A DNA stretch of 64,000 nucleotides from a virus (IMGVR_UViG_3300008107_010192:11507-75506), one strand, 5' to 3'. Positions 33,641 through 52,458 are shown, counted from the first letter of the stretch. Notes: generated by a model from the letters alone, not told the origin. Made by a program: numbers and translations.

Positions 33641-34246
33641 ATGAAAGTGATATTTTTAGACAATGACGGAGTAATTTGCCTTTCCAATAATTGGGGATCA
33701 CGACACAAGAAGCAAAAAAAATGGGGTGGTAGGAAACTATCTATGACTACTCGTGAAATGCCCCTTGAATATAGATTTGATAATTTTGATAAAAAAGCAA
33801 TTAAAATCTTAAATGAAATTCTAGAACAAACTGGAGCTGAAATTGTAGTGAGCTCCGATTGGAGATTGTATGCGGATTTAGAGGAGTTGGGGAAATACTA
33901 CACATCCCAGGGTATTATCAAAAATCCTATAGGAGTAACTGAAATATTTCACCATAAAAATTGGGTAGAAGAAGGTAGAATACCCCCAGATTTTGATTGG
34001 TACAGAATCGAAGATAGGGAGCAAGAAAGGCACTTCGAAATTCTGGAATGGCTAAAGAAGAATCCGGAGGTTACTCAATGGGTAGCTGTGGATGATTTAC
34101 ACATGGGGATTCACGTCGAAGCAAGTTCTTATGGAGCATTCGATAGAGATTGGGGATTGAAAAATTTTGTATGGACTCCCAGAGCCTGGGAAGGAATTAA
34201 ACAGTCAGGAATCAAAAAAAAGATTTTAAAATTTTTAAACAACTAA
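33641..34246 (+). CDS. HAD-like hydrolase (tentative)
   Basis: MKVIFLDNDGVIC resembles HAD motif I (DxDG[TV]); rest is unassigned. Confidence 0.35.
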   Translation: MKVIFLDNDGVICLSNNWGSRHKKQKKWGGRKLSMTTREMPLEYRFDNFDKKAIKILNEILEQTGAEIVVSSDWRLYADLEELGKYYTSQGIIKNPIGVTEIFHHKNWVEEGRIPPDFDWYRIEDREQERHFEILEWLKKNPEVTQWVAVDDLHMGIHVEASSYGAFDRDWGLKNFVWTPRAWEGIKQSGIKKKILKFLNN

Positions 34247-35717: not shown

Positions 35718-36788
35718 ATGAGTATCGCCTTAACTTATGATGACATCCAATTAGTTCCTGCTTACTCTGAAGTTGTTTCCAGGAGTACAATCAATCTTAA
35801 CACTTTGGTGACACGAAGATACGGATTAATTAGACCCCTGGTGGCTTCTCCGATGGATACGGTGTGTGAACTTGACATGGCCTATAGAATTTTTCTATTC
35901 GGAGGAGTTGGATGTATCCATCGTTTCATGCCTATTGAAAATCAATCCCGGATGATTGAGATGCTAAGATATAAAATATATGGAGACGGATTTGGTGGTC
36001 CTTTCGAGGATTGGGGAATCATGTATGACGATTGGCATTCTGAGATCAAGCAGATACCTATTATGGCAGCTGTTGGAGCTAATGGCGATTATTTGGATAG
36101 AGCAAAAAGTCTAATAAAGAATGGAGCAAATATCATCCTCATAGACGTAGCTCATGGACATCATAAAAATGTCAAAGATGCAATCGAATCTATAAAATCT
36201 ATTAGTCCCGAAATTGATGTGATAGCAGGAAATATTGCAACACCAGAAGCTGCTCAAGATTTAGAATCGTGGGGAGCGGACGGATTAAGAGTTGGTATTG
36301 GAGGTGGATCCCTTTGTACAACTAGAGTTAAAACTGGATTTGGTATTCCTAACGTAACTTGTATAGAAGAGATATCAAAAATTGCCACAGTTCCTGTTAT
36401 GGCAGATGGAGGTATTCGAACTAGTGGAGATATTGCTAAGGCTTTAGCACTTGGGGCAAGCAGTGTGATGCTAGGATCATTGCTTGCAGGGACAGAAGAA
36501 TCCCCTGGACAGATAGTTGAAAAATCAACGGGTCTATATAAAAGATACAGGGGTGCAGCATCATTAGAAACCAAAACGGTTCACGGACAAGCACAGAGAA
36601 ATGTAGAGGGGGAATCTACAATTATTCCATATAAAGGAGGAGCTAAATTTGTTTTAGAGGGATTACTTGACGGGGTTAAATCTGCTCTTTCATATGCAGG
36701 TGCGGTTTGTTTGAAAACATATCACCCAAAATATGTTCAAATTACCAACGCTGGTATGAACGAAGCAAAGCCGCATCTGATAAATTAA
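35718..36788 (+). CDS. guaC: GMP reductase / IMP dehydrogenase family (CBS-less, GuaC-like)
   Basis: LTYDDIQLVP (TFDDVLLVP-like), GIGGGSLCTTRVKTGFGIP (catalytic Cys loop GIGPGSICTTR), ADGGIRTSGDIAKALALGA (DGGI..GD..KA.A.GA); 356 aa without CBS insert. Confidence 0.7.
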   Translation: MSIALTYDDIQLVPAYSEVVSRSTINLNTLVTRRYGLIRPLVASPMDTVCELDMAYRIFLFGGVGCIHRFMPIENQSRMIEMLRYKIYGDGFGGPFEDWGIMYDDWHSEIKQIPIMAAVGANGDYLDRAKSLIKNGANIILIDVAHGHHKNVKDAIESIKSISPEIDVIAGNIATPEAAQDLESWGADGLRVGIGGGSLCTTRVKTGFGIPNVTCIEEISKIATVPVMADGGIRTSGDIAKALALGASSVMLGSLLAGTEESPGQIVEKSTGLYKRYRGAASLETKTVHGQAQRNVEGESTIIPYKGGAKFVLEGLLDGVKSALSYAGAVCLKTYHPKYVQITNAGMNEAKPHLIN

Positions 36789-36838
36789 TTCGGTTCGCAC
36801 GAAACAAACTTCTTAAAAGATATATAAATTTCATCATT

Positions 36839-37220
36839 GGGGGTGTATTTGGCACTTGACAGACATTGGTAGTTCTTTGAGATGATGCAGGCCGAGTTAG
36901 TATTGGAAACTCGTTAATCACCTATGCAAACAATAAACGACGTAGAATTATCTACAATGACCTTCGAAGACGCTATGTCTTTCGTTGGTGCTGATTACGC
37001 AATAGCTGCCTAATCCCTCCCGCACACATCGTGGGGCTTAAAATAGAATGTGAACCCAGGTGGAATATGACTGAACCCGAAATCGAGTCATCTGAATTTG
37101 GTAGTTTAATCAGCCAACTATAAACTACATATTTTGTTTGTAAAGAAAAACAAGCTAAGCCTGTGAATGAGTTTCTTTTAACAGATGGACTGGACACCGG
37201 TTCGATTCCGGTCACCTCCA
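36839..37220 (+). ncRNA. ssrA: tmRNA (SsrA-like transfer-messenger RNA)
   Basis: 5' GGGGGTG pairs with 3' CACCTCC, giving a 7-bp acceptor with a G3:U70 wobble (Ala identity). T-arm ACCGG-TTCGATT-CCGGT precedes it; discriminator A then CA. Internal reading frame ends ...GADYAIAA-TAA (a YALAA-type degradation tag). About 380 nt. Confidence 0.65.
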
Positions 37221-37236
37221 CAAAAATTAATTTAAT

Positions 37237-37869
37237 ATGCAAGACAGAAAAGAATTCCCGTCGTTATTGAAATCGATGGGATTGACCAACAAGGGAGTTG
37301 AGGTTGGATCTTTTAAGGGTGACTTTGCTAAAGAAATTCTTGAGCAGTGGCCAGGAATATTATATTTAGTGGATCCTTGGCGAGAAATGAAGGAAGAGGA
37401 GTATGACGATATTTCAAACATGAAACACCAGGGAAAAGTTTATGAAAAAACTTTTGAAAACCTAACAGGATTTGAAGAGCGAGCATTAATGATGAGAATG
37501 ACATCAGATCAGGCTGCTGAATTATTTCCCGACAGGTCTTTGGATTTTGTTTATATTGACGCAAACCACACTTATGAGCATGTGAAAAATGATATCATGC
37601 TTTGGTATCCCAAAGTTAAAATAGGAGGAATTCTTGCAGGACATGATTTTTTAAAACTAGAATGCTTCAACAAAGAATCTTACGCTAATGGACAAAAGAA
37701 CCACCCGATTTGGATGTGGTTAGATGGGGATTACAATAATAGATTCTATGCTGGAATGTTTGGAGTGAATCCAGCAGTGGAAGAATTTTTGGAATATAAT
37801 GGTTACGATCTTCATGTCACTAATGAGTTCACAGGAACTTGGTGGATAGTCAAAAAAAGCAATCTATGA
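37237..37869 (+). CDS. class I SAM-dependent methyltransferase-like (TylF/MycF-type)
   Basis: VEVGSFKGDFAKEI (motif I region), LYLVDPW, FVYIDANHTYEHVKNDI; paralogous to 31733..32461. Confidence 0.45.
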   Translation: MQDRKEFPSLLKSMGLTNKGVEVGSFKGDFAKEILEQWPGILYLVDPWREMKEEEYDDISNMKHQGKVYEKTFENLTGFEERALMMRMTSDQAAELFPDRSLDFVYIDANHTYEHVKNDIMLWYPKVKIGGILAGHDFLKLECFNKESYANGQKNHPIWMWLDGDYNNRFYAGMFGVNPAVEEFLEYNGYDLHVTNEFTGTWWIVKKSNL

Positions 37870-38807
37870 AAACCGCCTTTCTAAATCTCAGAAATCACAG
37901 GAAGGCTTATCTTATTTGTTCAGTTGGTCAAAGGTATATTGATATGGTTGAAGAACTGGTCCGCCAGTTAGACAAATATTCATCATTTCCTGTTTTTTTA
38001 TACTATTCGGATGGCCAGGTTAATTTTGATTTTCCCAATCTAATAAAACAGAAGTTTGAAATTGATTCCTCGATAAAGTATGAAATCGAAGGAATAAATC
38101 CAGAGAGTGTTAAAACACTAATGCTTACCACAGTTAAACCCAGGGCTTGCAAGCTTTTATTGGAAAACTATGAGGTAGATGAATTTGTCTTTCTTGATTC
38201 CGATGTTTTGGTTACACCTGCTATAGATTCTGTTTTTCTAAACTATGGCGATTCTATTTCTAACTTTCCTATTTTTCTAAGATATTCATGGGACTGGGTA
38301 ACCACCAACGGAAAGCAGCATGTTGCAGATATTATCTTAGAGAGAATTGGAATTTCTAGGGCTCCAACAGTAACCTCACTTTGTACCTGTCTTTTTATTG
38401 CAAACAGAAATTGTAAATCTTTCTTATCTGATTGGGAAAAATATTGTTCAGATCCTGAAATAATTAAGTTTGCTTTAAGTCCGGAGGGATACGGAGGATT
38501 TACCGATGAATCTGTTGCTAACGCAGTCGCTTGGCTTTATAGATGTAATATTTCCATTCCAACTAATCTTTGTTGGGCTTGGAAATATGAACCAGTGAAA
38601 TATGTCTTTGATTTTTATGACGGGATAATTTCAGATCTAGAAAGACACACTTCACAGCCGACCCATTATAAATTGAGTGGAGAAAATGAAGTACCTTTTG
38701 GTCTTTCTGTTATTCCCGAAAGAAAAAATAATTTTTTAGGATTTCATTTCATCAAAGATCTAGAGACAATTAAAAAAGTTGCAGAAGAAATAGAAAAAAG
38801 GTTCTAA
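37866..38807 (+). CDS. GT-A fold glycosyltransferase-like (DxD)
   Basis: CKLLLENYEVDEFVFLDSDVLV fits the nucleotide-diphospho-sugar transferase W/K....YD.v.f.DsD core. Start set to Met10, giving an ATGA overlap with the upstream stop. Confidence 0.4.
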   Translation: MKTAFLNLRNHRKAYLICSVGQRYIDMVEELVRQLDKYSSFPVFLYYSDGQVNFDFPNLIKQKFEIDSSIKYEIEGINPESVKTLMLTTVKPRACKLLLENYEVDEFVFLDSDVLVTPAIDSVFLNYGDSISNFPIFLRYSWDWVTTNGKQHVADIILERIGISRAPTVTSLCTCLFIANRNCKSFLSDWEKYCSDPEIIKFALSPEGYGGFTDESVANAVAWLYRCNISIPTNLCWAWKYEPVKYVFDFYDGIISDLERHTSQPTHYKLSGENEVPFGLSVIPERKNNFLGFHFIKDLETIKKVAEEIEKRF

Positions 38808-38884
38808 TTTCTGAAAATTTTTCTTTTTATCTTCTATAATCTAAAACAAAAGGAATATATAAAAATTCCTAGATCTTTAAACAT

Positions 38885-38959
38885 TGCGGGGTAGAGCAGT
38901 GGTAGCTCGCTGGGCTCATAACCCAGAAGTCGTGGGTTCGAATCCCACCCCCGCTACCA
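38885..38959 (+). tRNA. tRNA-Met, initiator type (anticodon CAT)
   Basis: Cloverleaf TGCGGGG-TA-GAGC..GCTC-G-CTGGG-CTCATAA-CCCAG-AAGTC-GTGGG-TTCGAAT-CCCAC-CCCCGCT-A-CCA: 1x72 mismatch and three G:C pairs in the anticodon stem as in bacterial tRNA-fMet; CCA encoded. Confidence 0.8.
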
Positions 38960-38969
38960 AAAAGAAGTT

Positions 38970-39075
38970 GGTAGCAAACTTGTGTATGATACGTTCCGGC
39001 TTCGATTGATAATCGAAGGTATCAAAAAGGAAGACGTCTCCGAGGTCTAATTCCCGCAAGTCCCTGCTACCTTTT
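38970..39075 (+). other. structured tRNA-like element bounded by a perfect 7-bp inverted repeat (GGTAGCA...TGCTACC), followed by a T-run
   Basis: The 106-nt span begins GGTAGCA and ends TGCTACC-TTTTTT. It contains an internal 8-bp hairpin, CTTCGATT-GATA-AATCGAAG, but no canonical D/T arms. Could be an intron-containing or degenerate tRNA, a small RNA, or an extended terminator. Confidence 0.2.
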
Positions 39076-39113
39076 TTATTGTAACCATTTCGTTATTCAA
39101 TCGTATAATATGC

Positions 39114-39887
39114 ATGAGCAAAAATTTGGTAATTTATTTAAATGTCTTTGATGACATATCAAAGACAGCACAAAGTGTAGAATCGATTAGAAGAGCATGT
39201 CATCGATGGGGTGCTAATTTTTACGAGGTGACAAACGTTCAGTATCCAAATGCACCTTATCCCTTTCTCTGGGAAACCCTTGCAGCTTTTGAAGAGTTCA
39301 ATCACTATGATAAAATTTTAAATTTGGATCATGATATCATCATAAATTCTAATGCTCCAAACATATTTGAGGAATTAACAGATGAATATGATTTTTGTGC
39401 TGTTAGAGACGGGAATCCGGGAGGAAGATTTCCTCATAATGATGGATTTCTAAGAGATTCTATTATAAAAACAATTAGTCACGATCAAAATTGCTTTGAT
39501 CTTTTTCATAGTGTTTTAAAGAATTTTAATTATGAAAAATACTGGCAAAATTATTTTAATTTAGGTGTCTATCTATTTAACCCCAAAAAATACAATCGAT
39601 TGATTAAAGAAATCAAGCAATTGGCTTTTGATGACAAAAGAGTTTATCAAATGCTTATGGGACAGGGATTTCCTTGGCACGCATTACAGAATTTTTTTAA
39701 TGCTTACATATCTTCCTCCGATCTTAAAATTAAATTAATTGACAATACTTGGAATTGGATTATGCCAGATATATCCGAGGAATATCACGATGATTTTTAT
39801 CTGGGAAAAATGAAACCAAACATCTATCATTTCTGTGGAACCCCAACATCAAAGGAGGACCTTCCTTTTTATGACAGATGGAAATAA
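39114..39887 (+). CDS. GT-A fold glycosyltransferase-like (GT8-like DxD)
   Basis: WETLAAFEEFNHYDKILNLDHDIII (W..l......YDkil.lD.D), C-terminal HFCG. Confidence 0.4.
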   Translation: MSKNLVIYLNVFDDISKTAQSVESIRRACHRWGANFYEVTNVQYPNAPYPFLWETLAAFEEFNHYDKILNLDHDIIINSNAPNIFEELTDEYDFCAVRDGNPGGRFPHNDGFLRDSIIKTISHDQNCFDLFHSVLKNFNYEKYWQNYFNLGVYLFNPKKYNRLIKEIKQLAFDDKRVYQMLMGQGFPWHALQNFFNAYISSSDLKIKLIDNTWNWIMPDISEEYHDDFYLGKMKPNIYHFCGTPTSKEDLPFYDRWK

Positions 39888-39902
39888 TTAAAATGAATCG
39901 AT

Positions 39903-40550
39903 ATGGCAAATGGAGTATACAAAATTACAGAAGAATTTGAAAAATCACTCGAAAGCTATACAGGAGCTCCACATGTTGTAACTTTAGACAATCAGAGTAA
40001 CGGACTTTTTCTTTCCCTATATTATGAAAATTACGTTAAAAAGAGCATAGAAAAAGGAAGTATAAAAATTCCAAGTCGAACTTATCCTTCAGTTCCTTGC
40101 GAGATTATTCATGCTGGCCTTAAAGTAGAGTTTGAGCATGTGAAAGGTAAGACGATTAAAGGTGCATACCAACTAAAAGGGAGCAAGGTTTGGGATTCTG
40201 CATTGTGTTTTACCTATAATATGTATAAGAAAAATACCCATATGTGCGTTTCTTTTACTGGACCATTTAAGCATTTTAAGTTGTCTAAAGGTGGAGCAAT
40301 ATTAACAGATGATCATGAAGCATATCTTTGGTTTAAAAGAGCTAGATATAGTGGCAGAAGAGAATGTTCTTATCATGACGATCACTTTGATATGCTGGGA
40401 TGGAATTTTTATATGATGCCAGAATTAGCAGCAAGGGGTTTACTCATGATGGGACAATTTTATGATCCTACAACGGGAAAACCTAAAAACAATCCAGATC
40501 TGGAACTACCATATCCAGATTTATCAAAATTTGATATTTATAAAAAATGA
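39903..40550 (+). CDS. hypothetical protein (weak similarity to DegT/DnrJ N-terminal region)
   Basis: EEFEKSLESYTGAPHVVTLDNQSNGLFLSL resembles the fE..f..y.G..h.v...SGT.AL.lal opening of sugar aminotransferases but is only 215 aa. Confidence 0.2.
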   Translation: MANGVYKITEEFEKSLESYTGAPHVVTLDNQSNGLFLSLYYENYVKKSIEKGSIKIPSRTYPSVPCEIIHAGLKVEFEHVKGKTIKGAYQLKGSKVWDSALCFTYNMYKKNTHMCVSFTGPFKHFKLSKGGAILTDDHEAYLWFKRARYSGRRECSYHDDHFDMLGWNFYMMPELAARGLLMMGQFYDPTTGKPKNNPDLELPYPDLSKFDIYKK

Positions 40551-42730
40551 GTAAAAAATTATCTATAATAATTCCCTCACTAAACAGGGAAAAATTACTT
40601 ATAAGTTCTATCAATAGCATAGTAGAAATTTTTAATTCATTCAACTTTCAAGATTATGATGTACATGCTATAGTAAATGGGTCAAACAAAAATACAACAG
40701 AAAAAATTAGAGAGAATATTTTTTTACATCATCATGAAAAAAAATTGAATCCTGGAATAGCGAGAAATATAGGAATTGAAAAAAGCGACTCTGAGTGGAT
40801 TTGGTTTATTGACGACGACGATGAAATAGTAGGTGAAAACATATCAAAAGTAATAGATTTTTTATACGACAAAAATGGTAATCATGGATTCGATTTAATA
40901 GCTCATTCTTTAAAAAATAAATACATTCCGGAAGATAATAAGAGATCTCTATTGGAAAATGTTTGTTTTTTTAAAGAAAAACAGGAGGCATTCAATTACA
41001 TTTTCAAAAGAGATTTAATAAAAAAGCATAATATATTATTTTCCGACGGATTACACGAGGATATCAGATACGTAACAGAACTGATAATAAATTCCTCCAT
41101 CATTAAAATATTTGATTTTTTCCTGTATAAAAAAATTAACCGGGATGATTCGATAACTAAAAATCTCAATCCATCTAGAATAGATGGATATTTACTAGCA
41201 ATCAGCGAGATTCAATCACTAGATAGCGATGAAATTTCTTCGATGTCTAATGGAATAGTGACACAGTGTCTAGGAACTATCCTATATCTAATAAACAAAT
41301 CCCAAAATAAGTTGGAGCTACTAGAATATCTGGACAGCAAATTCACATTTTATCTAAGATCAAAAATAACCGAAACGTATAGTGAAAAAGATACTAATTT
41401 CAAATACGCTGTTTCTCTTTACATTAATAAGAAAGACAATCTAGTATTTCTTGAAAGATTAAACGAATGCTTTTCTAGCTATCTCTCTTGTAGAGATCTA
41501 AAAAACTCAATATTTCTTGGTCCGAAAGAAATAATAGGATGCTGTAAAAGATTCTTTTATAATGGTAAGATGAAGGGTGACATCGTTTTAATGTCGGAAT
41601 CAATAGATGTTAATTTAGATTCTATACTTAAAAGAAAGGCTGAGGTTGAAGATGGGATAAATTCACAGACATATGAACCTTGTGAGGGGTGCCCTTATAT
41701 AGAAAGATATAGTAGATTAGAAAATAAAAAAATAAACTACATAAGCTTAGAAAATTTCACTTATTGCAACATGCGTTGTACTTATTGTTCTCCTAAATAT
41801 TATGGGGGTAAAGAAGCAGTATACAACACTCATGATATAATTAGTCAATTAATAGATGGTGAATATCTTGACGATAAAGTACACGTTGTTTGGGGAGGGG
41901 GAGAGCCAACATTACAAAGGGAATTTGGGGAAATAACAGAGAAACTAATAAACATAGAAAATGTCTATAAGATAAGAGTTCTTACAAACAGTCTAAGATT
42001 TTCAAACGATCTTTATAACCTAGCATCGAATGATAAAATAAGGATAGTTACTAGTATAGATGCAGGAACTCAAGATGTATTTAAAAATATCAGGGGAAAA
42101 GGAGAAATTTTAACAGTTTTAGAGAACCTAAAAAAATATACAGAGCAAACCAAGGATCCAGAGAATCTAACTTTAAAATACATTCTAACTGAACAAAACT
42201 ATCATTCCAATCAGTTAGAACAATTTGTAAAAACTATAAAAGAATTTGGATTTGAAAACAATTTTGTCCAAATAAGTTGTAATTTTTTATATGATCATCT
42301 GGGTGATGAGATAATATTTTCAATATACGAATTAGCAGCTAGACTATTAAATAATGGATTTAAGTTTGTTTATTTTGATGATTTAATCCGTGACAGATTA
42401 GCTATAAGTGAGGATATTGCGGATAAAGTAATCAATTATTTGTCGGAAAAATACCTCTATCACGATGATATAATTTCTTATAAGAGTAATAAACGGGTAG
42501 TTCTTTGGGGAGATGGATACCAATCTAGATGGATAAAAAACAGCACAACCTTTGGAAAATCTAATAAAATAAGGGGAATCGTTTCCGATATAAATGGATT
42601 TAACAATTTGAATTTAAATGTGGGTTTTACAGTATCCCCTGCCGCAATCCAACAATTACCAGACATATTTAAGGAAATTAAGAAGGAAAAAGATGTCTAT
42701 AATAAATTGAAATTCCACATATTTCTATAA
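40547..42730 (+). CDS. fusion protein: N-terminal GT2 (GT-A) glycosyltransferase + C-terminal radical SAM domain
   Basis: N-term LSIIIPSLNREKLL...GIARNIGIEKS...WIWFIDDDDE (GT2 motifs incl. DxD). C-terminal half has FTYCNMRCTYC (CxxxCxxC) and VVWGGGEPTL (GGE motif). Confidence 0.65.
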   Translation: MSKKLSIIIPSLNREKLLISSINSIVEIFNSFNFQDYDVHAIVNGSNKNTTEKIRENIFLHHHEKKLNPGIARNIGIEKSDSEWIWFIDDDDEIVGENISKVIDFLYDKNGNHGFDLIAHSLKNKYIPEDNKRSLLENVCFFKEKQEAFNYIFKRDLIKKHNILFSDGLHEDIRYVTELIINSSIIKIFDFFLYKKINRDDSITKNLNPSRIDGYLLAISEIQSLDSDEISSMSNGIVTQCLGTILYLINKSQNKLELLEYLDSKFTFYLRSKITETYSEKDTNFKYAVSLYINKKDNLVFLERLNECFSSYLSCRDLKNSIFLGPKEIIGCCKRFFYNGKMKGDIVLMSESIDVNLDSILKRKAEVEDGINSQTYEPCEGCPYIERYSRLENKKINYISLENFTYCNMRCTYCSPKYYGGKEAVYNTHDIISQLIDGEYLDDKVHVVWGGGEPTLQREFGEITEKLINIENVYKIRVLTNSLRFSNDLYNLASNDKIRIVTSIDAGTQDVFKNIRGKGEILTVLENLKKYTEQTKDPENLTLKYILTEQNYHSNQLEQFVKTIKEFGFENNFVQISCNFLYDHLGDEIIFSIYELAARLLNNGFKFVYFDDLIRDRLAISEDIADKVINYLSEKYLYHDDIISYKSNKRVVLWGDGYQSRWIKNSTTFGKSNKIRGIVSDINGFNNLNLNVGFTVSPAAIQQLPDIFKEIKKEKDVYNKLKFHIFL

Positions 42731-42756
42731 TAGAATATTTTTAAAGAGAATTATAA

Positions 42757-43857
42757 ATGAAAAATAAAAAATTAAAAGTTTCTGTCATAGGAGGGGGTAT
42801 AAATTCTGCAGTGGGATACGCACACTATTCTGCTATTAAGCTTTCAAACAAGTTCGAGATAACCTGCGGAAATTTTAGCAGAAATTCAAAGACTAATAGG
42901 GAAAGCGCTGAAATATATGGAGTGAATAAAGTTTATAGCGACTATAGGACTATGCTGTTGGAAGAAAAAAATAATATAGATGCAGTTGTAATATTAACCC
43001 CTACGGATCAGCATTATGATCAGTTAGACCTTGCAATAAGCTTAGGAATCCCTATTGTTTGTGAGAAATGCTTGATCGCTAATAATTTGGAATTAGAAAA
43101 ACTGAAGGAGAAACAATCTAATAATTTCATAGCAGTTGTTTTCAATTATCTCTGTTATCCTATGTTGAAGGAATTAAAAAGCATAATTGATTCGGGTGGA
43201 ATTGGAAAAATTTTACAGATTCAAATCGAGATGCCGCAAGAAGGATTTCTTAGGCACATGAACGGATTACCACTTAAACCACAAAAATGGAGATTAGTGG
43301 ATGGAAGAGTTCCCACCCTTTCTCTTGATCTAGCAACGCACACATATTCTATAGTAAGATTTTTAACATCACAAAATCCTTTAGAGGTTATTGCAGTCGA
43401 AAGTAGTTTTGGAAATTTTCCTGGAATAGTTGATGATATAAATTGCATAATTAAATACACGAATGATATAATTTGTAATATGTGGTATAGTAAAACCGCA
43501 TTAGGGAATAGAAATGGATTAAGGGTTAGAATATTTGGGTCTGATGGAAGTGCAGAATGGTACCAATTAGAACCAGAAGTAATTCACATGTCAGATAAAA
43601 GTGGAAAGATATCTTTGCTAGATAGGGGATCTGAAGGATTATTAACAGCTAATGAATTCAAATATAATAGATTCAAAGTTGGGCATCCTGTAGGATTTAT
43701 TGAATCCCTCGCTAATTTTTATGAGGACGTCTATGATGATTTTAAAAAAAGTCATGATGATCGCGTTACATATGGTCTAGAGCAATCAGAGGAGTGTATT
43801 AAACTGCTAGAGGCAATATCTAAGTCATCCGAAGAAAAATCTTGGCAATCCTTATGA
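42757..43857 (+). CDS. Gfo/Idh/MocA-family NAD(P)-dependent oxidoreductase
   Basis: LKVSVIGGGINSAVGYAH (Rossmann GxGxxG), AVVILTPTDQHYDQLDLAISLGIPIVCEK (V...tP...H......al.aGk.v.cEKP consensus). Confidence 0.6.
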   Translation: MKNKKLKVSVIGGGINSAVGYAHYSAIKLSNKFEITCGNFSRNSKTNRESAEIYGVNKVYSDYRTMLLEEKNNIDAVVILTPTDQHYDQLDLAISLGIPIVCEKCLIANNLELEKLKEKQSNNFIAVVFNYLCYPMLKELKSIIDSGGIGKILQIQIEMPQEGFLRHMNGLPLKPQKWRLVDGRVPTLSLDLATHTYSIVRFLTSQNPLEVIAVESSFGNFPGIVDDINCIIKYTNDIICNMWYSKTALGNRNGLRVRIFGSDGSAEWYQLEPEVIHMSDKSGKISLLDRGSEGLLTANEFKYNRFKVGHPVGFIESLANFYEDVYDDFKKSHDDRVTYGLEQSEECIKLLEAISKSSEEKSWQSL

Positions 43858-45017
43858 AAAAAATTTTACTGCTCGATACTAACGTTTCATCGTTTCCTAT
43901 TTATAATTTTTTGGTTAACGAGGGATATGAAGTTTATGTTGCTGGATCAAAAGAAAATGATTGTCTGGCAAAATGCTCTACTAATTATATTTTTTTAGAC
44001 TATTCCAGAATAGAAGAATTAAACAAAATAATTGAAGATTATAAATTTGATTATATTGTTCCAGGGTGTAACGACATGTCTTATGCTTGTGTTACTAAAA
44101 TAAATAAATCTAGAAAATTTCCTGGATTAGATCCGACTGAAATTTGCGAAACTATTAATAATAAATCGATGTTTAGAGATTTTGCAATTTCGAATGGATT
44201 AAATGTTCCCAAGGTTTATTCTTTAAAAGATGCTTATTGTGTTAATGTTCCACTAATAATAAAACCAGTTGATGCTTATAGCGGGAGAGGGATTTCTATA
44301 GTAAACGAACCAAACAAGATGTTACTAGATTTGGCTGTTGAAAATGCTATAAAATTTTCAAAAGACAAAAAATATGTAATAGAAGAATACAAAACAGGTC
44401 AGCTATACAGTCATTCTGCATTTATAGAAAACAAAAAGATAGTAAAAGATTTTATAGTTGTAGAAAATTGTACTGCCAATCCTTTTACTGTGGATTCTAG
44501 TTATGTTGTACATGATGACTTTCCTGTTAATTTGCTAGAATCAATAAGGAAAGATATAGAGATAATAGCAAAAATTTTAAAATTAGAGGATGGTCTTATT
44601 CATACGCAATTTATAAGGTCTGGAGATTCTTTTTATATAATAGAGGTTACCAGAAGATGTCCGGGGGATTTGTATAGCTTGCTGATTGAAAAATCTACAA
44701 ATTTTAAATATTCACAAAATTATGTTAGACCTTTTATTGGGAAAAAAATAATACAATCCACATCAGAAGAAATTAAAAAATACATTTTTAGACACACTAT
44801 ATCTAGCGATGCAGACCTTTTTTCGATTGGAATTGAATTTAAAAACGAATTGGATATAGATTTATACATTTCTCTTTCTGTTACTGGGGATGAAATGAAA
44901 AAATCACCATTCAGTAGATTTGGTCTGGTCTTCATTAAATGTAACGATCAGAAGGATCTTGAGAATAAATACGGCCTAGCTTTGAGGAGAGAACTATATT
45001 ATTATAAGAGTATATAG
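43842..45017 (+). CDS. ATP-grasp domain enzyme (carboxylate-amine ligase-like)
   Basis: Pre-ATP-grasp N-domain, then LIIKPVDAYSGRGISIV (KP..g..GkG) and EEYKTGQLYSHSAFI; overall ATP-grasp architecture. Confidence 0.55.
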   Translation: MAILMKKILLLDTNVSSFPIYNFLVNEGYEVYVAGSKENDCLAKCSTNYIFLDYSRIEELNKIIEDYKFDYIVPGCNDMSYACVTKINKSRKFPGLDPTEICETINNKSMFRDFAISNGLNVPKVYSLKDAYCVNVPLIIKPVDAYSGRGISIVNEPNKMLLDLAVENAIKFSKDKKYVIEEYKTGQLYSHSAFIENKKIVKDFIVVENCTANPFTVDSSYVVHDDFPVNLLESIRKDIEIIAKILKLEDGLIHTQFIRSGDSFYIIEVTRRCPGDLYSLLIEKSTNFKYSQNYVRPFIGKKIIQSTSEEIKKYIFRHTISSDADLFSIGIEFKNELDIDLYISLSVTGDEMKKSPFSRFGLVFIKCNDQKDLENKYGLALRRELYYYKSI

Positions 45018-45033
45018 AGATATTTTTATAGAA

Positions 45034-45357
45034 ATGATTACAGTAACTGAAAAAGCAGCACAAAGAATTAAATACCTAATAGAAGAAGCAGAAGATTCTA
45101 AGTTTTATCTAAGAGTATCTGTTAAAGGGGGAGGATGTAGCGGACTTTCATATGATTTATCATTTGATGACGAGATGAACGAAAAAGACACTCTTTATGA
45201 AGATAAAGCAGTTAAAATATTAGTGGATAATAAATCCATTCTTTATCTGTTTGGAACTGAACTAGACTTCTCTGACGGACTTAACGGTAAGGGATTTCAG
45301 TTCGTAAATCCTAATGCCTCCCGCACATGTGGATGTGGAGAAAGCTTTGCTGTGTAG
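45034..45357 (+). CDS. A-type Fe-S cluster carrier (IscA/SufA/ErpA, HesB family)
   Basis: ITVTEKAAQRIKYL...YLRVSVKGGGCSGLSYDLSFDD...VDNKSILYLFGTELDFSDGLNGKGFQFVNPNASRTCGCGESF: the HesB signature (GGCSG ... C-G-C-G-E-S-F) is complete. Confidence 0.8.
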   Translation: MITVTEKAAQRIKYLIEEAEDSKFYLRVSVKGGGCSGLSYDLSFDDEMNEKDTLYEDKAVKILVDNKSILYLFGTELDFSDGLNGKGFQFVNPNASRTCGCGESFAV

Positions 45358-45373
45358 CTTGATATATAGCTAC

Positions 45374-46066
45374 ATGATAAAGGGGTTTTCTGAATACATT
45401 AACGAAGCTTATAGCAATCCTAAAAATTATACGGATTTAAAATACGGAAATCCACAAAAGTGGCAAAAAGAAGCCATGGACAGAGGATCTAACCTTTTAA
45501 AATCTGTCAAAGAATCAAATCTTTGGGAAAAATGGACTTCTAGTTTACCTCCCAATCAAGATTCAGAGGAGGTAAAATCCGATTTACAAAATTTAATTCT
45601 CATGGGAAATTCTTTAACCGAGGAGGAAAAAGAGTTTGTAAAGGATTCAGAAAATGATATGCTAGGAATCTTTGAGAAATTTTTAAAGTTAAATGGGGTT
45701 GATTCTATTAAGAAAGAAGATTTGGAATCGGTAACAGATGAATTGGATCCGATCACTTTTATTTTAAAATATCAGTTTAACTATCCTAGACCACTTCAAC
45801 TGGCTCTTGTCCACGACATACCCCTTTATCCAGAGCAGCCAACTAACGCTTGCAGTCCCGCTTATCCTTCCGGACACTCAATAGATGCTTTTGTGATTGC
45901 TGGATTGATTGCTAAAAAATACCCTCAACTTGCCGATGATGTTTCTAAGCTTTCTGAAAGAGTTTCTATGACTAGAAACCTGGGAGGAATACATTTCACG
46001 TTTGATTCATCCTTTGGTAAAGAAATAGCAGAAGATATACTTTCTTTGGATCTTTTATCCCTTTAG
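45374..46066 (+). CDS. PAP2-superfamily phosphatase-like protein
   Basis: KYQFNYPRP (KxxxxxxRP), AYPSGHS (PSGH), SMTRNLGGIHFTFD (SRxxxxxHxxxD): all three PAP2 motifs present. Start set to internal Met to avoid overlapping iscA. Confidence 0.55.
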   Translation: MIKGFSEYINEAYSNPKNYTDLKYGNPQKWQKEAMDRGSNLLKSVKESNLWEKWTSSLPPNQDSEEVKSDLQNLILMGNSLTEEEKEFVKDSENDMLGIFEKFLKLNGVDSIKKEDLESVTDELDPITFILKYQFNYPRPLQLALVHDIPLYPEQPTNACSPAYPSGHSIDAFVIAGLIAKKYPQLADDVSKLSERVSMTRNLGGIHFTFDSSFGKEIAEDILSLDLLSL

Positions 46067-46183
46067 AAAAATAGTTTAACCGATTAAACTTTCCCGTTTG
46101 TTTTATTGAATATATAAATTGGGCTTGATAAAAGGATATCTCATTGATACACTAATCATGCTGGAGAAATTGTATGAATTATT

Positions 46184-49100
46184 ATGGCAAATTATAGAAT
46201 TTTAGGACAAGAAACTGTTAACAATTCGGTAAGTCCGGGACCTACCCTTGTAACACTTTATACGGTTCCTCAAAATGCTTCCATTCTAATCAATGCAATA
46301 ACCGGATATAATGAGGGATTTAATAGTGGATATCTTACCGTTGCAGTAAAAAGGAACGGGGACGAGGACTATTCTCCAGATCAAATTGTTATAAATACTC
46401 CCTTAGCACCCGGTGCTTCAATACAAATTTCTCCTCAATTTTCTCCTGTTGGTTTAACTGCCGGCGACGTAATACTTTTAGTTGGTAATTATTCTCCTGC
46501 CCCTACAACAGTAGCGGTAACCTTATTCGGTGAAGACGGGGCTTCTAGCGGTGGATCCGGCAATGCAGGAACATCCGGAACTTCAGGAAACAGTGGGGGC
46601 TCAAGTACTTCAGGAAGTAATGGTACTAGCGGGACTTCGGGAACTAATGGATCTACAGGAACTGGTGGTACTAGTGGTACCTCTGGAATGAACGGATCTA
46701 TCGGAACTAATGGTACGAGTGGAACCTCAGGTGAAACCTTCGGAACTAGTGGAACGTCAGGGGCAGCTGGTGCTCCTGGAGCAGCGGGATCTTCTGGAAC
46801 ATCTGGGGTTTCCGGAGCATCTGGTTCTTCTGGAACCTCTGGGGTTTCCGGAGCATCCGGTTCTTCCGGAACATCGGGAAATTCAGGTTCTTCTGGAACA
46901 TCTGGGATTTCCGGGGCATCTGGTTCTTCCGGAACATCAGGAAATTCGGGATCCTCTGGTACATCAGGAAATTCGGGAACCTCTGGTACTTCGGGAGAAT
47001 CTGGTTCTGCTGGTACATCCGGATCATCTGGAACATCAGGAAACTCCGGGTCATCCGGTACATCAGGAAACTCCGGGTCCTCCGGTACATCAGGAAATTC
47101 GGGAACCTCTGGTACTTCTGGGGAATCTGGCTCTTCTGGAACATCAGGATTCTCTGGGTCCTCCGGAACATCAGGAAACTCCGGGTCATCCGGTACATCA
47201 GGATCCTCTGGAGAACCCGGTTCTGCCGGAACATCGGGATCCTCAGGTACATCTGGTACATCAGGAAACTCCGGGTCATCCGGTACATCAGGGTCATCCG
47301 GTACATCAGGGTCCTCTGGTACATCTGGTGCTGATGGTACATCCGGTTCTTCCGGAACCTCGGGAAACCCTGGATCATCAGGGACCTCTGGAACATCAGG
47401 AAACTCTGGATCATCGGGGACATCCGGATCCGCTGGAACTTCTGGTTTAAGCGGAATATCTGCAGGACAGATTTATTATTTTAACCAATCTCAGTCTTCT
47501 GACATTTCTCCATATAAAGTCCTTAGTGTTTACCCATCAGGAGCTGCTGAACAAACAGTTCCTATGGTATTAACGGGCGGGCAATTGAATGTTCTGGTAA
47601 GTCAATTCCTGACCCCCGAATTGGGATTTGCTGTAATTCCACCAGGCACTCAGAGATTTCATCTGCATTTTTTAAAACAACAGTTTAATGATGACATAGA
47701 TGGCTATGTTACCATAGAACTTGCAAATTCGTCAGGTGTAGGATATGGCACTATTATTCAATCAAACAAAGCTTTAATTGGATGGGTGAGTGTTTCTCAA
47801 TCTTATGAGCTGTTGGTTGATATTGTTTTACCTTCAGTATACATAAACACCACAGACAGAATGATTGTCAAGGTTTACGTTGACAATAATGAAGCAACCG
47901 TCAGAAATTTAACTTGGTACACAGAGGGGGCTCAAAACTATTCATATGTAATCACATCGGTTGGAGCAATTGTAGCAAGCTCTGGAACGTCAGGGAGTTC
48001 TGGAACTAGTGGATCAAGCGGAACTTCGGGATCCGGGGGTTCATCAGGAACTAGCGGATCTAGTGGATCGGAGGGAACTTCAGGTAGCTCTGGTACTTCC
48101 GGCAGTTCTGGAACCTCTGGAGAAGATGGAACTTCAGGTAGCTCTGGTACTTCCGGCAGTTCTGGAACCTCTGGAGAAGATGGAACTTCGGGATCTGGGG
48201 GTTCATCAGGAACTAGCGGATCTAGTGGATCGGAGGGAACTTCAGGTAGCTCTGGTACTTCGGGAACCTCTGGAGAAGATGGAACTTCAGGTAGCTCTGG
48301 TACTTCGGGAACCTCTGGAGAAGATGGAACTAGTGGATCTTCAGGTACATCAGGAACCTCGGGGGTGTGCGAGTGTCCACACAGCTACACTATCACGGCT
48401 CCAACGGATATCACGTGTTACTCTTTAACAAATGACGGAGATCCCGACAACGTAAATAGTACAAACTATCTCGATTGTAACGGGAATCCTGCGGTCATTT
48501 ACAATAAAATTTTTCTCACACCAGCTACTTATTTCTGTGCTCAGACCGGATCTGTTACAACTGATTCGGGGCTCACTGTAATATCAGTACCTGATGATCC
48601 TGGATCTTGCGACGGATGTTGCGATGGATATGCTTATTCTTATACCGACGAAACAGATACTATCATAAGTGGAATCATATATGACGGAGAATCTCTAACT
48701 TTCTGTGCGATCCCAGGATCTGTAGTTTGGTCCCATACAATAGTAGACAATGGGCATTGTGTAGGAAGTTCAGGTACTTCCGGCAGTTCTGGTTCGAATG
48801 GTACGTCAGGTAGCTCTGGTACTTCCGGCAGTTCTGGTTCGAATGGTACGTCAGGTAGCTCTGGTACTTCCGGCAGTTCTGGATCTTCTGGGACATCAGG
48901 AACTGATGGTTCCTCCGGTAGTACAGGTACTTCTGGTTCTTCCGGCAGTTCTGGATCTTCTGGGACATCAGGAACTGATGGTTCCTCCGGTAGTACAGGT
49001 ACTTCTGGATCCTCAGGGTCATCTGGAACTTCCGGAACTGATGGATCTTCAGGTACATCAGGTAACTCTGGTTCTTCTGGAACCTCAGGATCAGCAGGTA

Positions 49101-49315
49101 CATCAGGAAATGAGGGTCCCCCTGGATCTTCGGGAACGTCAGGAATTGATGGAACCAACGGATCGACAGGTTCTTCTGGAACCTCAGGAAACTCTGGTTC
49201 TTCAGGTACTTCAGGTACTTCAGGTAGTTCTGGTTCAACTGGTACTTCAGGTAGTTCTGGTTCTTCTGGAACCTCTGGTTCTTCTGGTTCAACTGGTACT
49301 TCAGGTACTTCGTAG
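46184..49315 (+). CDS. collagen-like repeat fibre protein (tail-fibre/tailspike candidate), N-terminal reading frame ending at a frameshift
   Basis: Hundreds of Gly-X-Y triplets (GTSGSSGTSGNSG...) interrupted by two globular inserts, one Cys-rich (VCECPH...CDGCCDGY). Frame ends at TAG 49313-49315 inside the repeat, where ggtacttcAGgtagttctgg appears as ggtacttc--gtagttctgg. Confidence 0.55.
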   Translation: MANYRILGQETVNNSVSPGPTLVTLYTVPQNASILINAITGYNEGFNSGYLTVAVKRNGDEDYSPDQIVINTPLAPGASIQISPQFSPVGLTAGDVILLVGNYSPAPTTVAVTLFGEDGASSGGSGNAGTSGTSGNSGGSSTSGSNGTSGTSGTNGSTGTGGTSGTSGMNGSIGTNGTSGTSGETFGTSGTSGAAGAPGAAGSSGTSGVSGASGSSGTSGVSGASGSSGTSGNSGSSGTSGISGASGSSGTSGNSGSSGTSGNSGTSGTSGESGSAGTSGSSGTSGNSGSSGTSGNSGSSGTSGNSGTSGTSGESGSSGTSGFSGSSGTSGNSGSSGTSGSSGEPGSAGTSGSSGTSGTSGNSGSSGTSGSSGTSGSSGTSGADGTSGSSGTSGNPGSSGTSGTSGNSGSSGTSGSAGTSGLSGISAGQIYYFNQSQSSDISPYKVLSVYPSGAAEQTVPMVLTGGQLNVLVSQFLTPELGFAVIPPGTQRFHLHFLKQQFNDDIDGYVTIELANSSGVGYGTIIQSNKALIGWVSVSQSYELLVDIVLPSVYINTTDRMIVKVYVDNNEATVRNLTWYTEGAQNYSYVITSVGAIVASSGTSGSSGTSGSSGTSGSGGSSGTSGSSGSEGTSGSSGTSGSSGTSGEDGTSGSSGTSGSSGTSGEDGTSGSGGSSGTSGSSGSEGTSGSSGTSGTSGEDGTSGSSGTSGTSGEDGTSGSSGTSGTSGVCECPHSYTITAPTDITCYSLTNDGDPDNVNSTNYLDCNGNPAVIYNKIFLTPATYFCAQTGSVTTDSGLTVISVPDDPGSCDGCCDGYAYSYTDETDTIISGIIYDGESLTFCAIPGSVVWSHTIVDNGHCVGSSGTSGSSGSNGTSGSSGTSGSSGSNGTSGSSGTSGSSGSSGTSGTDGSSGSTGTSGSSGSSGSSGTSGTDGSSGSTGTSGSSGSSGTSGTDGSSGTSGNSGSSGTSGSAGTSGNEGPPGSSGTSGIDGTNGSTGSSGTSGNSGSSGTSGTSGSSGSTGTSGSSGSSGTSGSSGSTGTSGTS

Positions 49316-50822
49316 TTCTGGTTCTTCTGGAACCTCAGGAAACTCTGGATCTTCTGGAACCTCTGGAGCATCAGGATCTTCTGGAACCTCAGGAAACTCT
49401 GGTTCTTCTGGAACCTCTGGAGCATCAGGTAGTTCTGGTTCTTCTGGAACCTCTGGAGCATCAGGATCTTCTGGAACCTCAGGAAACTCTGGATCTTCTG
49501 GAACCTCAGGAAACTCTGGATCTTCTGGAACCTCTGGAGCATCAGGATCTTCTGGAACCTCAGGAAACTCTGGATCTTCTGGAACCTCTGGAGCATCAGG
49601 ATCTTCTGGAACCTCTGGAGCATCGGGAGCTAATGGATCTTCTGGAACCTCTGGAGCATCAGGATCTTCTGGAACCTCTGGAGCATCAGGAGCTAATGGA
49701 TCTTCTGGAACCTCTGGAGCATCAGGAGCTAATGGATCTTCTGGAACCTCAGGAAACTCTGGTTCTTCTGGAACCTCTGGAGCATCAGGAGCTAATGGAT
49801 CTTCTGGAACCTCAGGATCTTCTGGAACCCGAGGTTCCTCAGGAACTTCAGGAGCTTCCGGTGGAAACGGAACATCCGGAACTTCAGGAGCTTCCGGGGG
49901 AAGCGGAACATCCGGAACTTCGGGAGCTTCTAGTTCAGCAATATCTAGTAATAACATCGACAACTATGTTGTTACCATGACTGGAAACAATTCCACGCCT
50001 TTCCAAGGGGAGCCTAACTTAACATTCGATAATACGAGACTTTTTGTAACTGGGAAAGTAAGGGTTTATCAAAATCCATTAAGCATAAGTTCAGGAAGTC
50101 TTTCTTGGCCTTTAAGATCTGGAGCAAATGCAACAGTTACTTTAAATCAAAATGTAACTACGTTTACACTTAGCGAATTTGAAGCTGGAGATACTGGGGT
50201 ATTAATAGTAAAACAAGATGCTACTGGAGGTAGAACAATGGTACTTCCCTCTAGTTCACAAGTAGTTGGAGGAGGATCTTATACCCCAACATCCGCTGCA
50301 AACTCACAAGACGTTCTTGGAGTTTACTACGACGGAACAACATATTTCTGGACCATTGGGCTCGCTAGTGTTACAGGTAACTTACTTACAATAAACAATA
50401 ATGCAGATCACAGAATATTGACTGCAACTGGTAGTGCTACTTCGATAGACGGAGAAACAGGATTGACTTATAACAGCAGTACATTAGCAGTAACTGGAGC
50501 AATCACAGCAACAGGAGATATCACTGCTTATTCATCTTCGGATGAAAGATTAAAGGATAATATTTCGGTTATTCAGGATGCTTTGGAAAAGGTCTCTAGC
50601 ATAAGAGGAGTGGAATTTGATTGGAACGACAAGGCTCATGAAGTTAATAGAGGTCACGATCTTGGAGTAATTGCTCAAGAGCTGATTAAAGTTCTTCCTG
50701 ATGCAGTTAAAGAAAGAGAAGATGGATATTATGGGGTAAGATATGACAGAATTATACCTCTTCTCATAGAGGCTATAAAAGACTTAAGAAAAGAAATAGA
50801 AGAACTTAAAAGAGAAAAATAA
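49314..50822 (+). CDS. collagen-like fibre protein, C-terminal part in the shifted frame, ending in an intramolecular-chaperone (peptidase S74-like) domain
   Basis: Continues the GSSGTSG repeats, then a beta-rich domain and C-terminal SSDERLKDNISVIQDALEKV...DLGVIAQELIKVLPDAV...YDRIIPLLIEAIKDLRKEIEELK (S74/CIMCD consensus with the Ser-Lys dyad). ORF-track 48798..50822 covers this frame. Confidence 0.55.
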   Translation, partial: SSGSSGTSGNSGSSGTSGASGSSGTSGNSGSSGTSGASGSSGSSGTSGASGSSGTSGNSGSSGTSGNSGSSGTSGASGSSGTSGNSGSSGTSGASGSSGTSGASGANGSSGTSGASGSSGTSGASGANGSSGTSGASGANGSSGTSGNSGSSGTSGASGANGSSGTSGSSGTRGSSGTSGASGGNGTSGTSGASGGSGTSGTSGASSSAISSNNIDNYVVTMTGNNSTPFQGEPNLTFDNTRLFVTGKVRVYQNPLSISSGSLSWPLRSGANATVTLNQNVTTFTLSEFEAGDTGVLIVKQDATGGRTMVLPSSSQVVGGGSYTPTSAANSQDVLGVYYDGTTYFWTIGLASVTGNLLTINNNADHRILTATGSATSIDGETGLTYNSSTLAVTGAITATGDITAYSSSDERLKDNISVIQDALEKVSSIRGVEFDWNDKAHEVNRGHDLGVIAQELIKVLPDAVKEREDGYYGVRYDRIIPLLIEAIKDLRKEIEELKREK

Positions 50823-52130: not shown

Positions 52131-52217
52131 GGAGGCTTGGCAGAGCGGTCGAATGCGGCAGTCTTGAAAACTGCTTTACGGGTAACTGTAACCGGGGTTC
52201 GAATCCCTGAGCCTCCG
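52131..52217 (+). tRNA. tRNA-Ser (anticodon TGA)
   Basis: GGAGGCT/AGCCTCC acceptor, anticodon arm GCAGT-CTTGAAA-ACTGC, long variable arm, T-loop TTCGAAT. Confidence 0.8.
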
Positions 52218-52222
52218 CAATT

Positions 52223-52453: not shown

Positions 52454-52458
52454 CACAT

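Follow-up and report, generated by a model that had tools for sequence, protein, structure and literature searches.

The hypervariable host-recognition cluster of pelagimyophages mixes tail fibres, lipopolysaccharide (LPS) genes rich in GT8 glycosyltransferases and radical S-adenosylmethionine (SAM) cassettes, and it is proposed to remodel the O-chain of the host (Zaragoza-Solas et al. 2020, PMC7029224). A T4-like marine viral genome has likewise been reported to carry an A-type iron-sulphur (Fe-S) carrier together with 12 radical SAM genes, and the viral carrier was proposed to serve viral Fe-S proteins (Nishimura et al. 2017, PMC5332604). Glycosyltransferase and radical SAM domains, phage glycan islands and viral A-type carriers are all well known. 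Here we describe a gene in which the two domain types are joined. It lies in a 64,000-nucleotide stretch of viral DNA (IMGVR_UViG_3300008107_010192:11507-75506; hereafter the window), where positions 40547..42730 of the plus strand encode a 727-residue polypeptide that couples a family 2 glycosyltransferase (GT2) domain to a complete radical SAM domain. We think it probable that this fusion is a bifunctional glycan-building enzyme and the signature gene of a mobile cassette of four to five genes, whose products would make an N-acylated amino sugar, transfer it and tailor it by radical chemistry.

The fusion gene is a complete open reading frame (ORF) with an ATG start, and neither a stop nor a frameshift interrupts it, exactly as an initial annotation of this DNA had described. 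Pfam recognises both domains well above threshold: Glycos_transf_2 (PF00535) covers residues 6-110 (E 9e-18, 65.2 bits versus a cut-off of 23.3) and Radical_SAM (PF04055) residues 405-540 (E 5e-18, 66.2 bits versus 29.5). The GT-A/GT2 domain occupies residues 1-235 (40547..41251), with its DxD at residues 89-92 (nt 40811-40822; DDDDE at 89-93) and an ED motif at 171-172, and is followed by an all-helical extension or linker with a conserved NFKYA motif (residues 236-310, 41252..41476; placed from the secondary structure of the model and the alignment). The second half opens with a Cys-rich, twitch-like domain that putatively holds an auxiliary cluster (residues 311-395, 41477..41731; placed from the alignment, hhalign and the start of standalone homologues at exactly this point), continues with the radical SAM core (residues 396-620, 41732..42406), in which CX3CX2C reads CNMRCTYC (residues 407-414, nt 41765-41788) and GGGEP lies at 450-454, and ends in a conserved small alpha/beta domain of Rossmann- or flavodoxin-like type that bears an LWGxGxQ motif (42407..42727). 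Both the twitch-like domain and this C-terminal domain had been overlooked in the initial annotation.

Conservation spans the whole length of the protein. Across an alignment of 27 homologues, D89, D91 and D92 of the DxD, E171-D172, the three core cysteines (C407, C411 and C414) and GGGEP are identical in every sequence, as are six additional cysteines (C315, C332, C333, C379, C382 and C578), and a DDLIRDR motif and the C-terminal LWGxGxQ motif are also invariant. The AlphaFold2 model built on this alignment has a mean predicted local distance difference test score (pLDDT) of 91.1 and a predicted template modelling score (pTM) of 0.83, so that the relative placement of the domains is confident. 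Within it the GT2 half adopts a GT-A fold, the radical SAM half a partial TIM barrel and the Cys-rich domain a beta-hairpin/helix arrangement. The fusion is accordingly predicted to be one polypeptide with two folded catalytic halves, and the location of E171-D172 at the usual GT2 catalytic-base position is suggestive of glycosyl transfer. A different view of the same model is that the GT-A domain merely binds a nucleoside-diphosphate (NDP) sugar and presents it to the radical SAM site, making the protein a single-function NDP-sugar-modifying enzyme. The pTM suggests that the halves are rigidly packed, and other glycosyltransferase genes nearby could carry out the transfer. However, the DxD and E171-D172 are invariant over 33-73% identity, as expected of an active transferase, and the GT2 counterpart in Pseudoalteromonas is a normal, free-standing enzyme of 355 residues. 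We consider this view very unlikely.

Homologues of the fusion exclude a frameshift or mis-assembly as the origin of the continuous ORF. Among 5.8 billion proteins searched, more than 110 homologue clusters of 715-770 residues align with 97-100% of the query (33-73% identity), and all of these full-length proteins, which include members from Neptuniibacter pectenicola, Burkholderiales and Hirschia baltica, contain both PF00535 and PF04055. With the radical SAM half alone as query, an exhaustive phmmer search of 1.84 billion representatives clustered at 50% identity found 154 proteins at E <= 1e-30, followed by a broad, generic radical SAM tail. At least 85 of the best 150 of these relatives are fused to a GT2 domain and about 23-40 are standalone radical SAM proteins of ~430 residues, the remainder being fragments; the standalone proteins start exactly at the motif SC.DL..S.F..P.E.R.CCKRF. 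Pseudoalteromonas sp. SS15 has such a standalone gene directly followed by the 355-residue GT2 gene. The radical SAM protein of this pair matches the C-terminal half of the fusion from residue 313 onwards (32% identity, E 7e-66), and its GT2 protein matches the N-terminal half at 29% identity and has family-specific motifs in common with it. The occurrence of the two halves as a fusion in some genomes and as adjacent genes in SS15 is classic evidence for functional coupling, and it supports the idea, first raised from the window alone, that sugar transfer and radical tailoring are physically linked.

The family so delimited is spread over phages and several bacterial phyla and is not peculiar to the phage of the window. 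Among 50,697 deposited phage genomes there is no homologue of the fusion or of the ATP-grasp ligase encoded downstream of it, only generic radical SAM and ATP-grasp matches. Many GT2 and radical SAM/SPASM models of NCBIfam match the fusion, all below threshold, so that no curated family covers it, and the literature searched yielded neither a characterised GT2-radical SAM enzyme, of which the initial annotation likewise knew none, nor a radical SAM enzyme in a flagellin glycosylation island. A family that combines a GT2 domain with an N-terminally "twitched" radical SAM domain, keeps fixed partners, has a split counterpart and is common to phages and bacterial flagellar loci thus appears to be undescribed in the literature searched, PDB, Pfam and NCBIfam.

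The Cys-rich domain ahead of the core links the fusion to another set of proteins encoded in the window. ORFs 19540, 20691, 22938 and 25149, all on the minus strand, are clear members of NF033640 (307-331 bits versus a cut-off of 170). The radical SAM half of the fusion reaches 45.6 bits against this model, over the core only, a score that rules out membership and sets the fusion apart as a separate family. When the fusion is compared with the NF033640 paralogues by hhalign, the alignment (probability 97%, E 7e-11) runs from the CC motif through the CxxC, CX3CX2C and GGEP motifs, which points to a distantly related and similarly permuted auxiliary-cluster domain and supports the assignment of this region as a remote homologue of the NF033640 "N-terminal twitch". 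The extra conserved cysteines expected of a SPASM/twitch domain with an auxiliary [4Fe-4S] cluster are present, as far as sequence can tell; the Pfam SPASM profile (PF13186) has no match to the fusion at E<=0.01 and does match two of the paralogues, ORFs 19540 and 20691. In the fusion and the NF033640 proteins alike, the order is permuted and the Cys-rich auxiliary-cluster domain precedes the CX3CX2C core, but the fusion differs in its extra C-terminal alpha/beta domain and its GT2 half. We know of no functionally characterised member of NF033640. Among the deposited phages, the four paralogues (19540-26531, minus strand) have a homologue only in the Ralstonia jumbo phage RsoM2USA, at 38% identity.

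Several genes around the fusion are conserved with it. Based on gene order, the conserved unit comprises a short DegT-type protein, the GT2-radical SAM fusion, a Gfo/Idh/MocA oxidoreductase and an ATP-grasp ligase, with or without a Methyltransf_24 protein. In the window all are on the plus strand. The short DegT/DnrJ/EryC1-type pyridoxal phosphate (PLP) enzyme of 215 residues (39903..40550) has a stop codon that overlaps the start codon of the fusion. Downstream lie the Gfo/Idh/MocA NAD(P) sugar dehydrogenase (42757-43857), which matches three Pfam domains (PF01408, 47.6 bits versus 24; PF02894, 54.3 versus 22.9; PF22725, 60.6 versus 27), and the ATP-grasp carboxylate-amine ligase (43842-45017; PF13535, 34.3 bits versus 27). 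The SAM-dependent Methyltransf_24 methyltransferase, a frequent rather than universal member, is encoded 2 kb upstream (37237..37869). The short DegT, fusion, Gfo and ATP-grasp genes are strictly collinear in six other phage-like contigs (L005/L006, L101 and the IMG/VR contigs L091-L094) at 53-80% identity, often with a Methyltransf_24 gene nearby; L005 has a DNA polymerase B, L101 has clamp-loader genes and both have a PD-(D/E)XK nuclease. In bacteria, where the module recurs in Proteobacteria and Planctomycetes, its carriers include Neptuniibacter, two Burkholderiales, Methylophaga and a Rhizobium sp., among others. Across 19 distinct fused contexts, a Gfo gene is present in 17, an ATP-grasp gene in 16 and a DegT gene in 16. 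A promoter and terminator scan of 36700-46400 gave counts equal to those of shuffled controls.

The closest relatives of the individual partners give some indication of what they do. The window Gfo is closest to sugar C-2/C-3 dehydrogenases, namely inositol 2-dehydrogenase, levoglucosan dehydrogenase and UDP-GlcNAc 3-dehydrogenase. The closest solved relatives of the ATP-grasp protein, although weak ones, are a PurD-like protein and the L-amino-acid ligase 3vot; it is 38-42% identical to the copies of Neptuniibacter, Burkholderiales and a related metagenome-assembled genome (L001/L007/L012) and 25-34% identical to those of more distant bacterial loci. The short DegT matches PF01041 with 39 bits versus 19.8, over profile positions 24-98 of 360 only, contains an SF..K..GG-like stretch that is visible by eye, and is 62-80% identical across related uncultured phage contigs; it may be a minimal PLP sugar enzyme. 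Copies lie at 9001-9645 of contig L097 and 8001-8588 of contig L098; the short form of ~210-215 residues is very conserved in uncultured phage contigs and in the Flavobacterium phage immuto, and a distant short DegT adjoins a glycosyltransferase and a radical SAM "maturase" in Synechococcus phage S-SCSM2R.

From these partners we infer a substrate, an order of steps, a radical reaction and an acceptor as follows. A ketone formed from a sugar hydroxyl by the Gfo/Idh/MocA enzyme would be transaminated by the DegT-type enzyme to give an amino sugar, whose amine the ATP-grasp ligase would acylate, using either a carboxylic acid or an amino acid. Pairs of Gfo/Idh/MocA and DegT enzymes that turn a sugar hydroxyl into an amine by way of a keto intermediate are known from WbpB/WbpE and GnnA/GnnB. 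The N-terminal half of the fusion, an inverting GT-A (GT2) glycosyltransferase of the soluble TarS/TarP/RmlT type, would then transfer the sugar onto a growing glycan, where the tethered C-terminal half, a radical SAM enzyme with an auxiliary [4Fe-4S] twitch-like domain ahead of its core, would oxidise or epimerise the sugar or its acyl group as a tailoring step; the Methyltransf_24 enzyme would often methylate the product. Candidate radical reactions are dehydrogenation, epimerisation and C-C bond formation, a choice that cannot be read from the sequence.

Natural substitutions within the cassette favour an N-acylated amino sugar as its product. The ATP-grasp gene is replaced in one locus (L009) by genes for an adenylating enzyme, an acyl carrier protein (ACP) and an acyltransferase, and in another (L020) by genes for an adenylating enzyme and an aminoglycoside-type N-acetyltransferase; both sets would N-acylate sugar amines. 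The Flavobacterium phage vB_FspM_immuto (Immutovirus), an isolated phage, points the same way. Its 78%-identical short DegT (immuto35A_98) belongs to a cluster of glycosyltransferase genes located downstream of a PD-(D/E)XK nuclease, which is the genomic position found in L005 and L101, but a PglD-type acetyltransferase follows the short DegT in place of the trio of fusion, Gfo and ATP-grasp. The substitutions also bear on the alternative that the ATP-grasp enzyme amidates a uronic acid, activating a sugar carboxylate and joining it to an amine that the DegT-like enzyme supplies, with a PAP2 or haloacid dehalogenase (HAD) phosphatase trimming the product. Cj1438 of Campylobacter jejuni, which combines a glycosyltransferase with an ATP-grasp amidoligase, provides a model for such a pathway, and an ATP-grasp protein, a PLP enzyme and phosphatases of both types (PAP2 at 45374-46066 and HAD at 33641-34246) are all encoded in the window. 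Nevertheless, the replacements in the two loci work on a free acid, which they activate, and on a sugar amine, which they acylate, rather than on a sugar carboxylate, the two phosphatases are not conserved with the cassette, and no UDP-sugar 6-dehydrogenase was seen. Amidation is for these reasons the alternative to which we give the least credence, and we retain acylation of an amino sugar as the likely role of the ligase.

The genomic setting of the bacterial copies suggests where such a sugar might be used. The cassette of Neptuniibacter occupies a site between fliS and fleQ in the flagellar filament locus, where the order is FliD, FliS, a tetratricopeptide-repeat GT41 protein (TPR-GT41), RmlB-like, RmlA-like, DegT, Gfo, ATP-grasp, fusion, Methyltransf_24 and FleQ. 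A TPR-GT41 protein is encoded close to the cassette in a Burkholderiales locus as well, and the split pair of Pseudoalteromonas adjoins FliD/FliS in an island that also has NeuB, a CMP-sugar synthetase, DegT and Gfo. Judged from gene content, these sites are positions of flagellin glycosylation islands, into which the cassette is plugged in bacteria. A DAHP_synth_1 (KDO8P/DAHP-synthase-type) gene flanks the cassette next to DegT and TPR-GT41 in one Burkholderiales locus (L007, 13641-14756, minus strand), which, like the NeuB of Pseudoalteromonas, hints that the cassette is tied to a ulosonic-acid pathway in some hosts.

The tie of the bacterial cassette to flagellin O-glycosylation makes glycosylation of phage fibres an attractive alternative for the window. 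According to this idea, the cassette and the ~34-kb island around it would assemble an O-linked glycan on the Ser/Thr-rich collagen-like fibres of the phage itself, whose genes lie directly downstream (46184-50822). Apart from the bacterial homologues, which are accompanied in their flagellar filament loci by a TPR-GT41 protein glycosyltransferase, the idea draws on the fact that the fibre genes begin 118 nt past the PAP2 gene and that their collagen repeats are extremely rich in Ser and Thr, and on the glycosyltransferases and radical SAM cassettes that pelagimyophage-type phages hold within their tail-fibre/host-recognition region (PMC7029224). Against it, the window encodes no TPR-GT41 or other recognisable protein O-glycosyltransferase, and co-location with tail fibres is equally expected of any hypervariable island. 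Modification of the virion is on this evidence rather unlikely. Its most specific form, in which the phage O-glycosylates its collagen-like fibres with a flagellin-type cassette and the fusion adds an N-acyl amino sugar and then performs a new radical reaction on the glycan itself, where the sugar or acyl group might for example be oxidised, epimerised or cross-linked through a C-C bond, is plainly unlikely. If true, this would be radical tailoring after transfer, which is not known in glycobiology; most examples of radical SAM chemistry on sugars come from antibiotic pathways, where it acts on free nucleotide sugars or aminocyclitols.

Alternatively, the glycan may be destined for the host. 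Alteration of LPS, capsule or another surface glycan could block superinfection or prevent progeny from adsorbing to dying cells. The GT2 half is most similar to the cell-wall polymer decorators TarS, TarP and RmlT, of which TarP is itself encoded by a prophage, and the nearby GT8, GT2_4, UDP-galactopyranose mutase (Glf) and PAP2 phosphatase genes fit envelope glycan chemistry. Such remodelling has also been proposed for the islands of marine T4-like phages that are rich in glycosyltransferases, the equivalent pelagimyophage region among them (PMC7029224). The window shows, however, no flippase, polymerase or ligase of the Wzx/Wzy/WaaL type and no lipid-carrier priming transferase, and the bacterial counterparts are linked to flagellin, not to LPS loci, so that we hold this destination to be possible but doubtful. 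For the phage we keep to the broader proposal that the cassette, which in T4-like aquatic phages sits in a large hypervariable glycan/tail-fibre region, decorates either the surface of the infected cell or the virion.

Several observations weigh against the bifunctional enzyme and its cassette as we propose them. A standalone radical SAM gene in a Pelagibacteraceae single-amplified genome (L019) has no recognisable GT2 neighbour, which contradicts a universal GT2 neighbour for the standalone copies, and one fused homologue (L100) is an orphan. The solved folds closest to the radical SAM half are generic, with no privileged relative: structural superposition of the C-terminal half scores 16.6 with PFL-AE, 15.2 with SkfB, 14.3 with viperin, 13.7 with BlsE, 13.0 with anSME and 12.9 with MoaA. 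The short DegT falls ~145 residues (~40%) short of the canonical fold and no PDB entry matches its sequence, so that its activity is unproven. The Gfo of Neptuniibacter and Burkholderiales has no detectable similarity to the phage Gfo by tblastn at 1e-5, and what looks like the same partner may therefore be two subfamilies. Finally, the TPR-GT41 protein O-glycosyltransferase of the bacterial loci is missing from the window.

Two further genes downstream of the ATP-grasp gene, both real and where the initial annotation had placed them, turn out to lie outside the conserved unit. The first encodes an A-type Fe-S carrier (45034-45357, plus strand) with Cys35/99/101 (C-X63-C-X-C). It matches TIGR00049 (E 2e-37, 127.7 bits versus 58.8) and passes the ErpA model (126.9 bits versus a cut-off of 117) but fails as an IscA equivalog (107.7 versus 181 and 106.8 versus 150.6 bits), so that its original designation as IscA-type holds for the A-type class and gives way to an ErpA-like assignment within it. 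The gene begins 16 nt after the ATP-grasp gene, a tight spacing that is specific to the phage of the window; a 68%-identical carrier recurs in one of the six related phage contigs (L093), ~5.4 kb downstream of ATP-grasp. The second gene encodes a soluble PAP2-superfamily phosphatase (45374..46066, plus strand; the ORF opens at 45314, and the Met at 45374 follows the carrier stop), whose Pfam match is marginal (28.2 bits versus 27.2) and in which K152-x6-RP, PSGH185 and R221-x5-H-x3-D are all present. Neither gene adjoins the module in L005, L091, L092, L094, L101 or any bacterial locus. The flanking genes named at the outset thus divide into conserved partners, Gfo and ATP-grasp, and mere neighbours, the carrier and PAP2.

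The carrier nevertheless has plausible clients. The window encodes six radical SAM proteins, as had been counted, five as complete ORFs and one as a partial ORF at the left edge (3-689, minus strand; CNLKCPSC), and the ErpA-like protein plausibly helps to load [4Fe-4S] clusters into them, as a separate accessory gene. The suggestion that the phage supplies its own carrier for these enzymes is reasonable rather than new, the proposal of a carrier that serves viral Fe-S proteins having been published in 2017 (PMC5332604), and our finding is one further example of that pattern. Among the deposited phages, the only convincing homologues of the carrier are those of huge uncultured phages (57% and 48% identity), and the other matches look like bacterial contamination.

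The rest of the window supports its origin from a phage, with collagen-like tail-fibre proteins, an endolysin-like protein, 21 tRNAs and a transfer-messenger RNA (tmRNA). It has no close DNA relative among the deposited phages, the single DNA-level match being tRNA-Arg(tct) (52754-52828), which has 86-94% identity with tRNAs from marine cyanophages and from a 635-kb uncultured phage. The tRNA genes (38885-61141, plus strand) lie mostly in three arrays (52131-53091, 58864-59525 and 60756-61141). The tmRNA (36839-37223, plus strand; Rfam RF00023, 79.5 bits versus 47), for which ARAGORN gives the tag peptide DVELSTMTFEDAMSFVGADYAIAA, sits between an IMPDH/GMP-reductase-like gene and the methyltransferase gene that opens the plus-strand string of glycan genes. 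The former encodes a CBS-less IMPDH/GMP-reductase-family protein (35718-36788, plus strand; PF00478, E 2e-97) that scores under all NCBIfam equivalog cut-offs, and an SPFH/Band-7 protein is encoded just upstream of it (34792-35703, plus strand).

The glycan island that houses the module extends from about nt 12,000 to 46,000 (~34 kb). Besides the NF033640 paralogues it contains two GT7-laminin-G fusions, GT8, GT2_4, two Methyltransf_24 proteins and a cupin-nucleotidyltransferase-kinase fusion. The GT8 gene (39114..39887, plus strand) belongs to the same co-directional string as the GT2-radical SAM fusion. The two tandem GT7-lectin fusions (27839-29281 and 29278-30684, minus strand) match the N and C domains of beta-1,4-galactosyltransferase (E 1e-16 to 1e-20) and join a eukaryote-type GT7 to a laminin-G/concanavalin-like lectin domain, which is unusual for a phage. 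A 643-residue protein (14482-16413, minus strand) combines a mannose-6-phosphate-isomerase-type cupin, a nucleotidyltransferase and an APH-like kinase and is possibly a one-protein enzyme of sugar salvage and activation (kinase plus NDP-sugar pyrophosphorylase). To the left, about 14 small ORFs of 144-272 residues lie back to back (677-8478, minus strand); at least two encode 2-oxoglutarate-Fe(II) oxygenases (1890-2393 and 5373-6038) and the remaining ones have no Pfam match. Directly after the island come two long tail-fibre ORFs with collagen-like G-S/T-S repeats (46184-49315 and 48798-50822, plus strand; PHROG tail-fibre E 7e-45, Pfam Collagen E 2e-77), the second with a tail-fibre chaperone-like C terminus. 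They overlap by 518 nt in different frames and could be one gene broken by an assembly error in the repeat region or a genuine frameshift. Their G+C content is 45-49%, versus ~31% in the adjoining glycan genes, including the surroundings of the fusion, in an AT-rich window. Beyond the tRNA array, Glf (61176-62264, plus strand; phrog_9677, E 4e-125), which shares 50-53% identity with the annotated glf genes of Streptococcus suis phages, implies galactofuranose in the glycan that the phage directs.

An important aspect of the fusion family is that it defines a compact, testable module of four genes, a tractable target rather than a surprise. Its conserved glycosyltransferase fusion and split-gene counterpart predict that glycosyl transfer and radical tailoring are coupled in one enzyme. 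Because the module of the uncultured T4-like aquatic phages is also found in flagellar loci of cultivable bacteria (Neptuniibacter pectenicola and Pseudoalteromonas sp.), these provide an experimental route to a phage glycan island that is itself inaccessible, and could help to show whether the target of such islands is the host surface or the virion.

Each of the known systems closest to this locus matches it in part. The wall-teichoic-acid GT2 enzymes TarS, TarP and RmlT are 15-21% identical to the GT2 domain of the fusion but have no radical SAM half, and their C-terminal parts are, unlike that of the fusion, trimerisation or carbohydrate-binding domains. On the radical side, the SPASM/twitch enzymes that act on carbohydrates or peptides (BtrN, anSME, SkfB and BlsE) are among the nearest counterparts. 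At the level of gene clusters, the pelagimyophage region is, like that of the window, a large variable region of fibres, GT8-rich genes and radical SAM cassettes, whereas the GT2-radical SAM fusion and the four-gene module are not described in that paper (PMC7029224). The marine T4-like phages of Nishimura et al. have the same combination of an A-type carrier with many radical SAM genes, again with neither fusion nor module described (PMC5332604). The flagellin glycosylation islands (Pse/Leg islands and those with TPR-GT41 proteins of the FlmG/FgtA type) provide the very context in which the bacterial cassette homologues reside. The phage island differs in that it lacks flagellar genes as well as a TPR-GT41 protein and adjoins tail-fibre genes instead; it is not a flagellin glycosylation island, though it may work like one.

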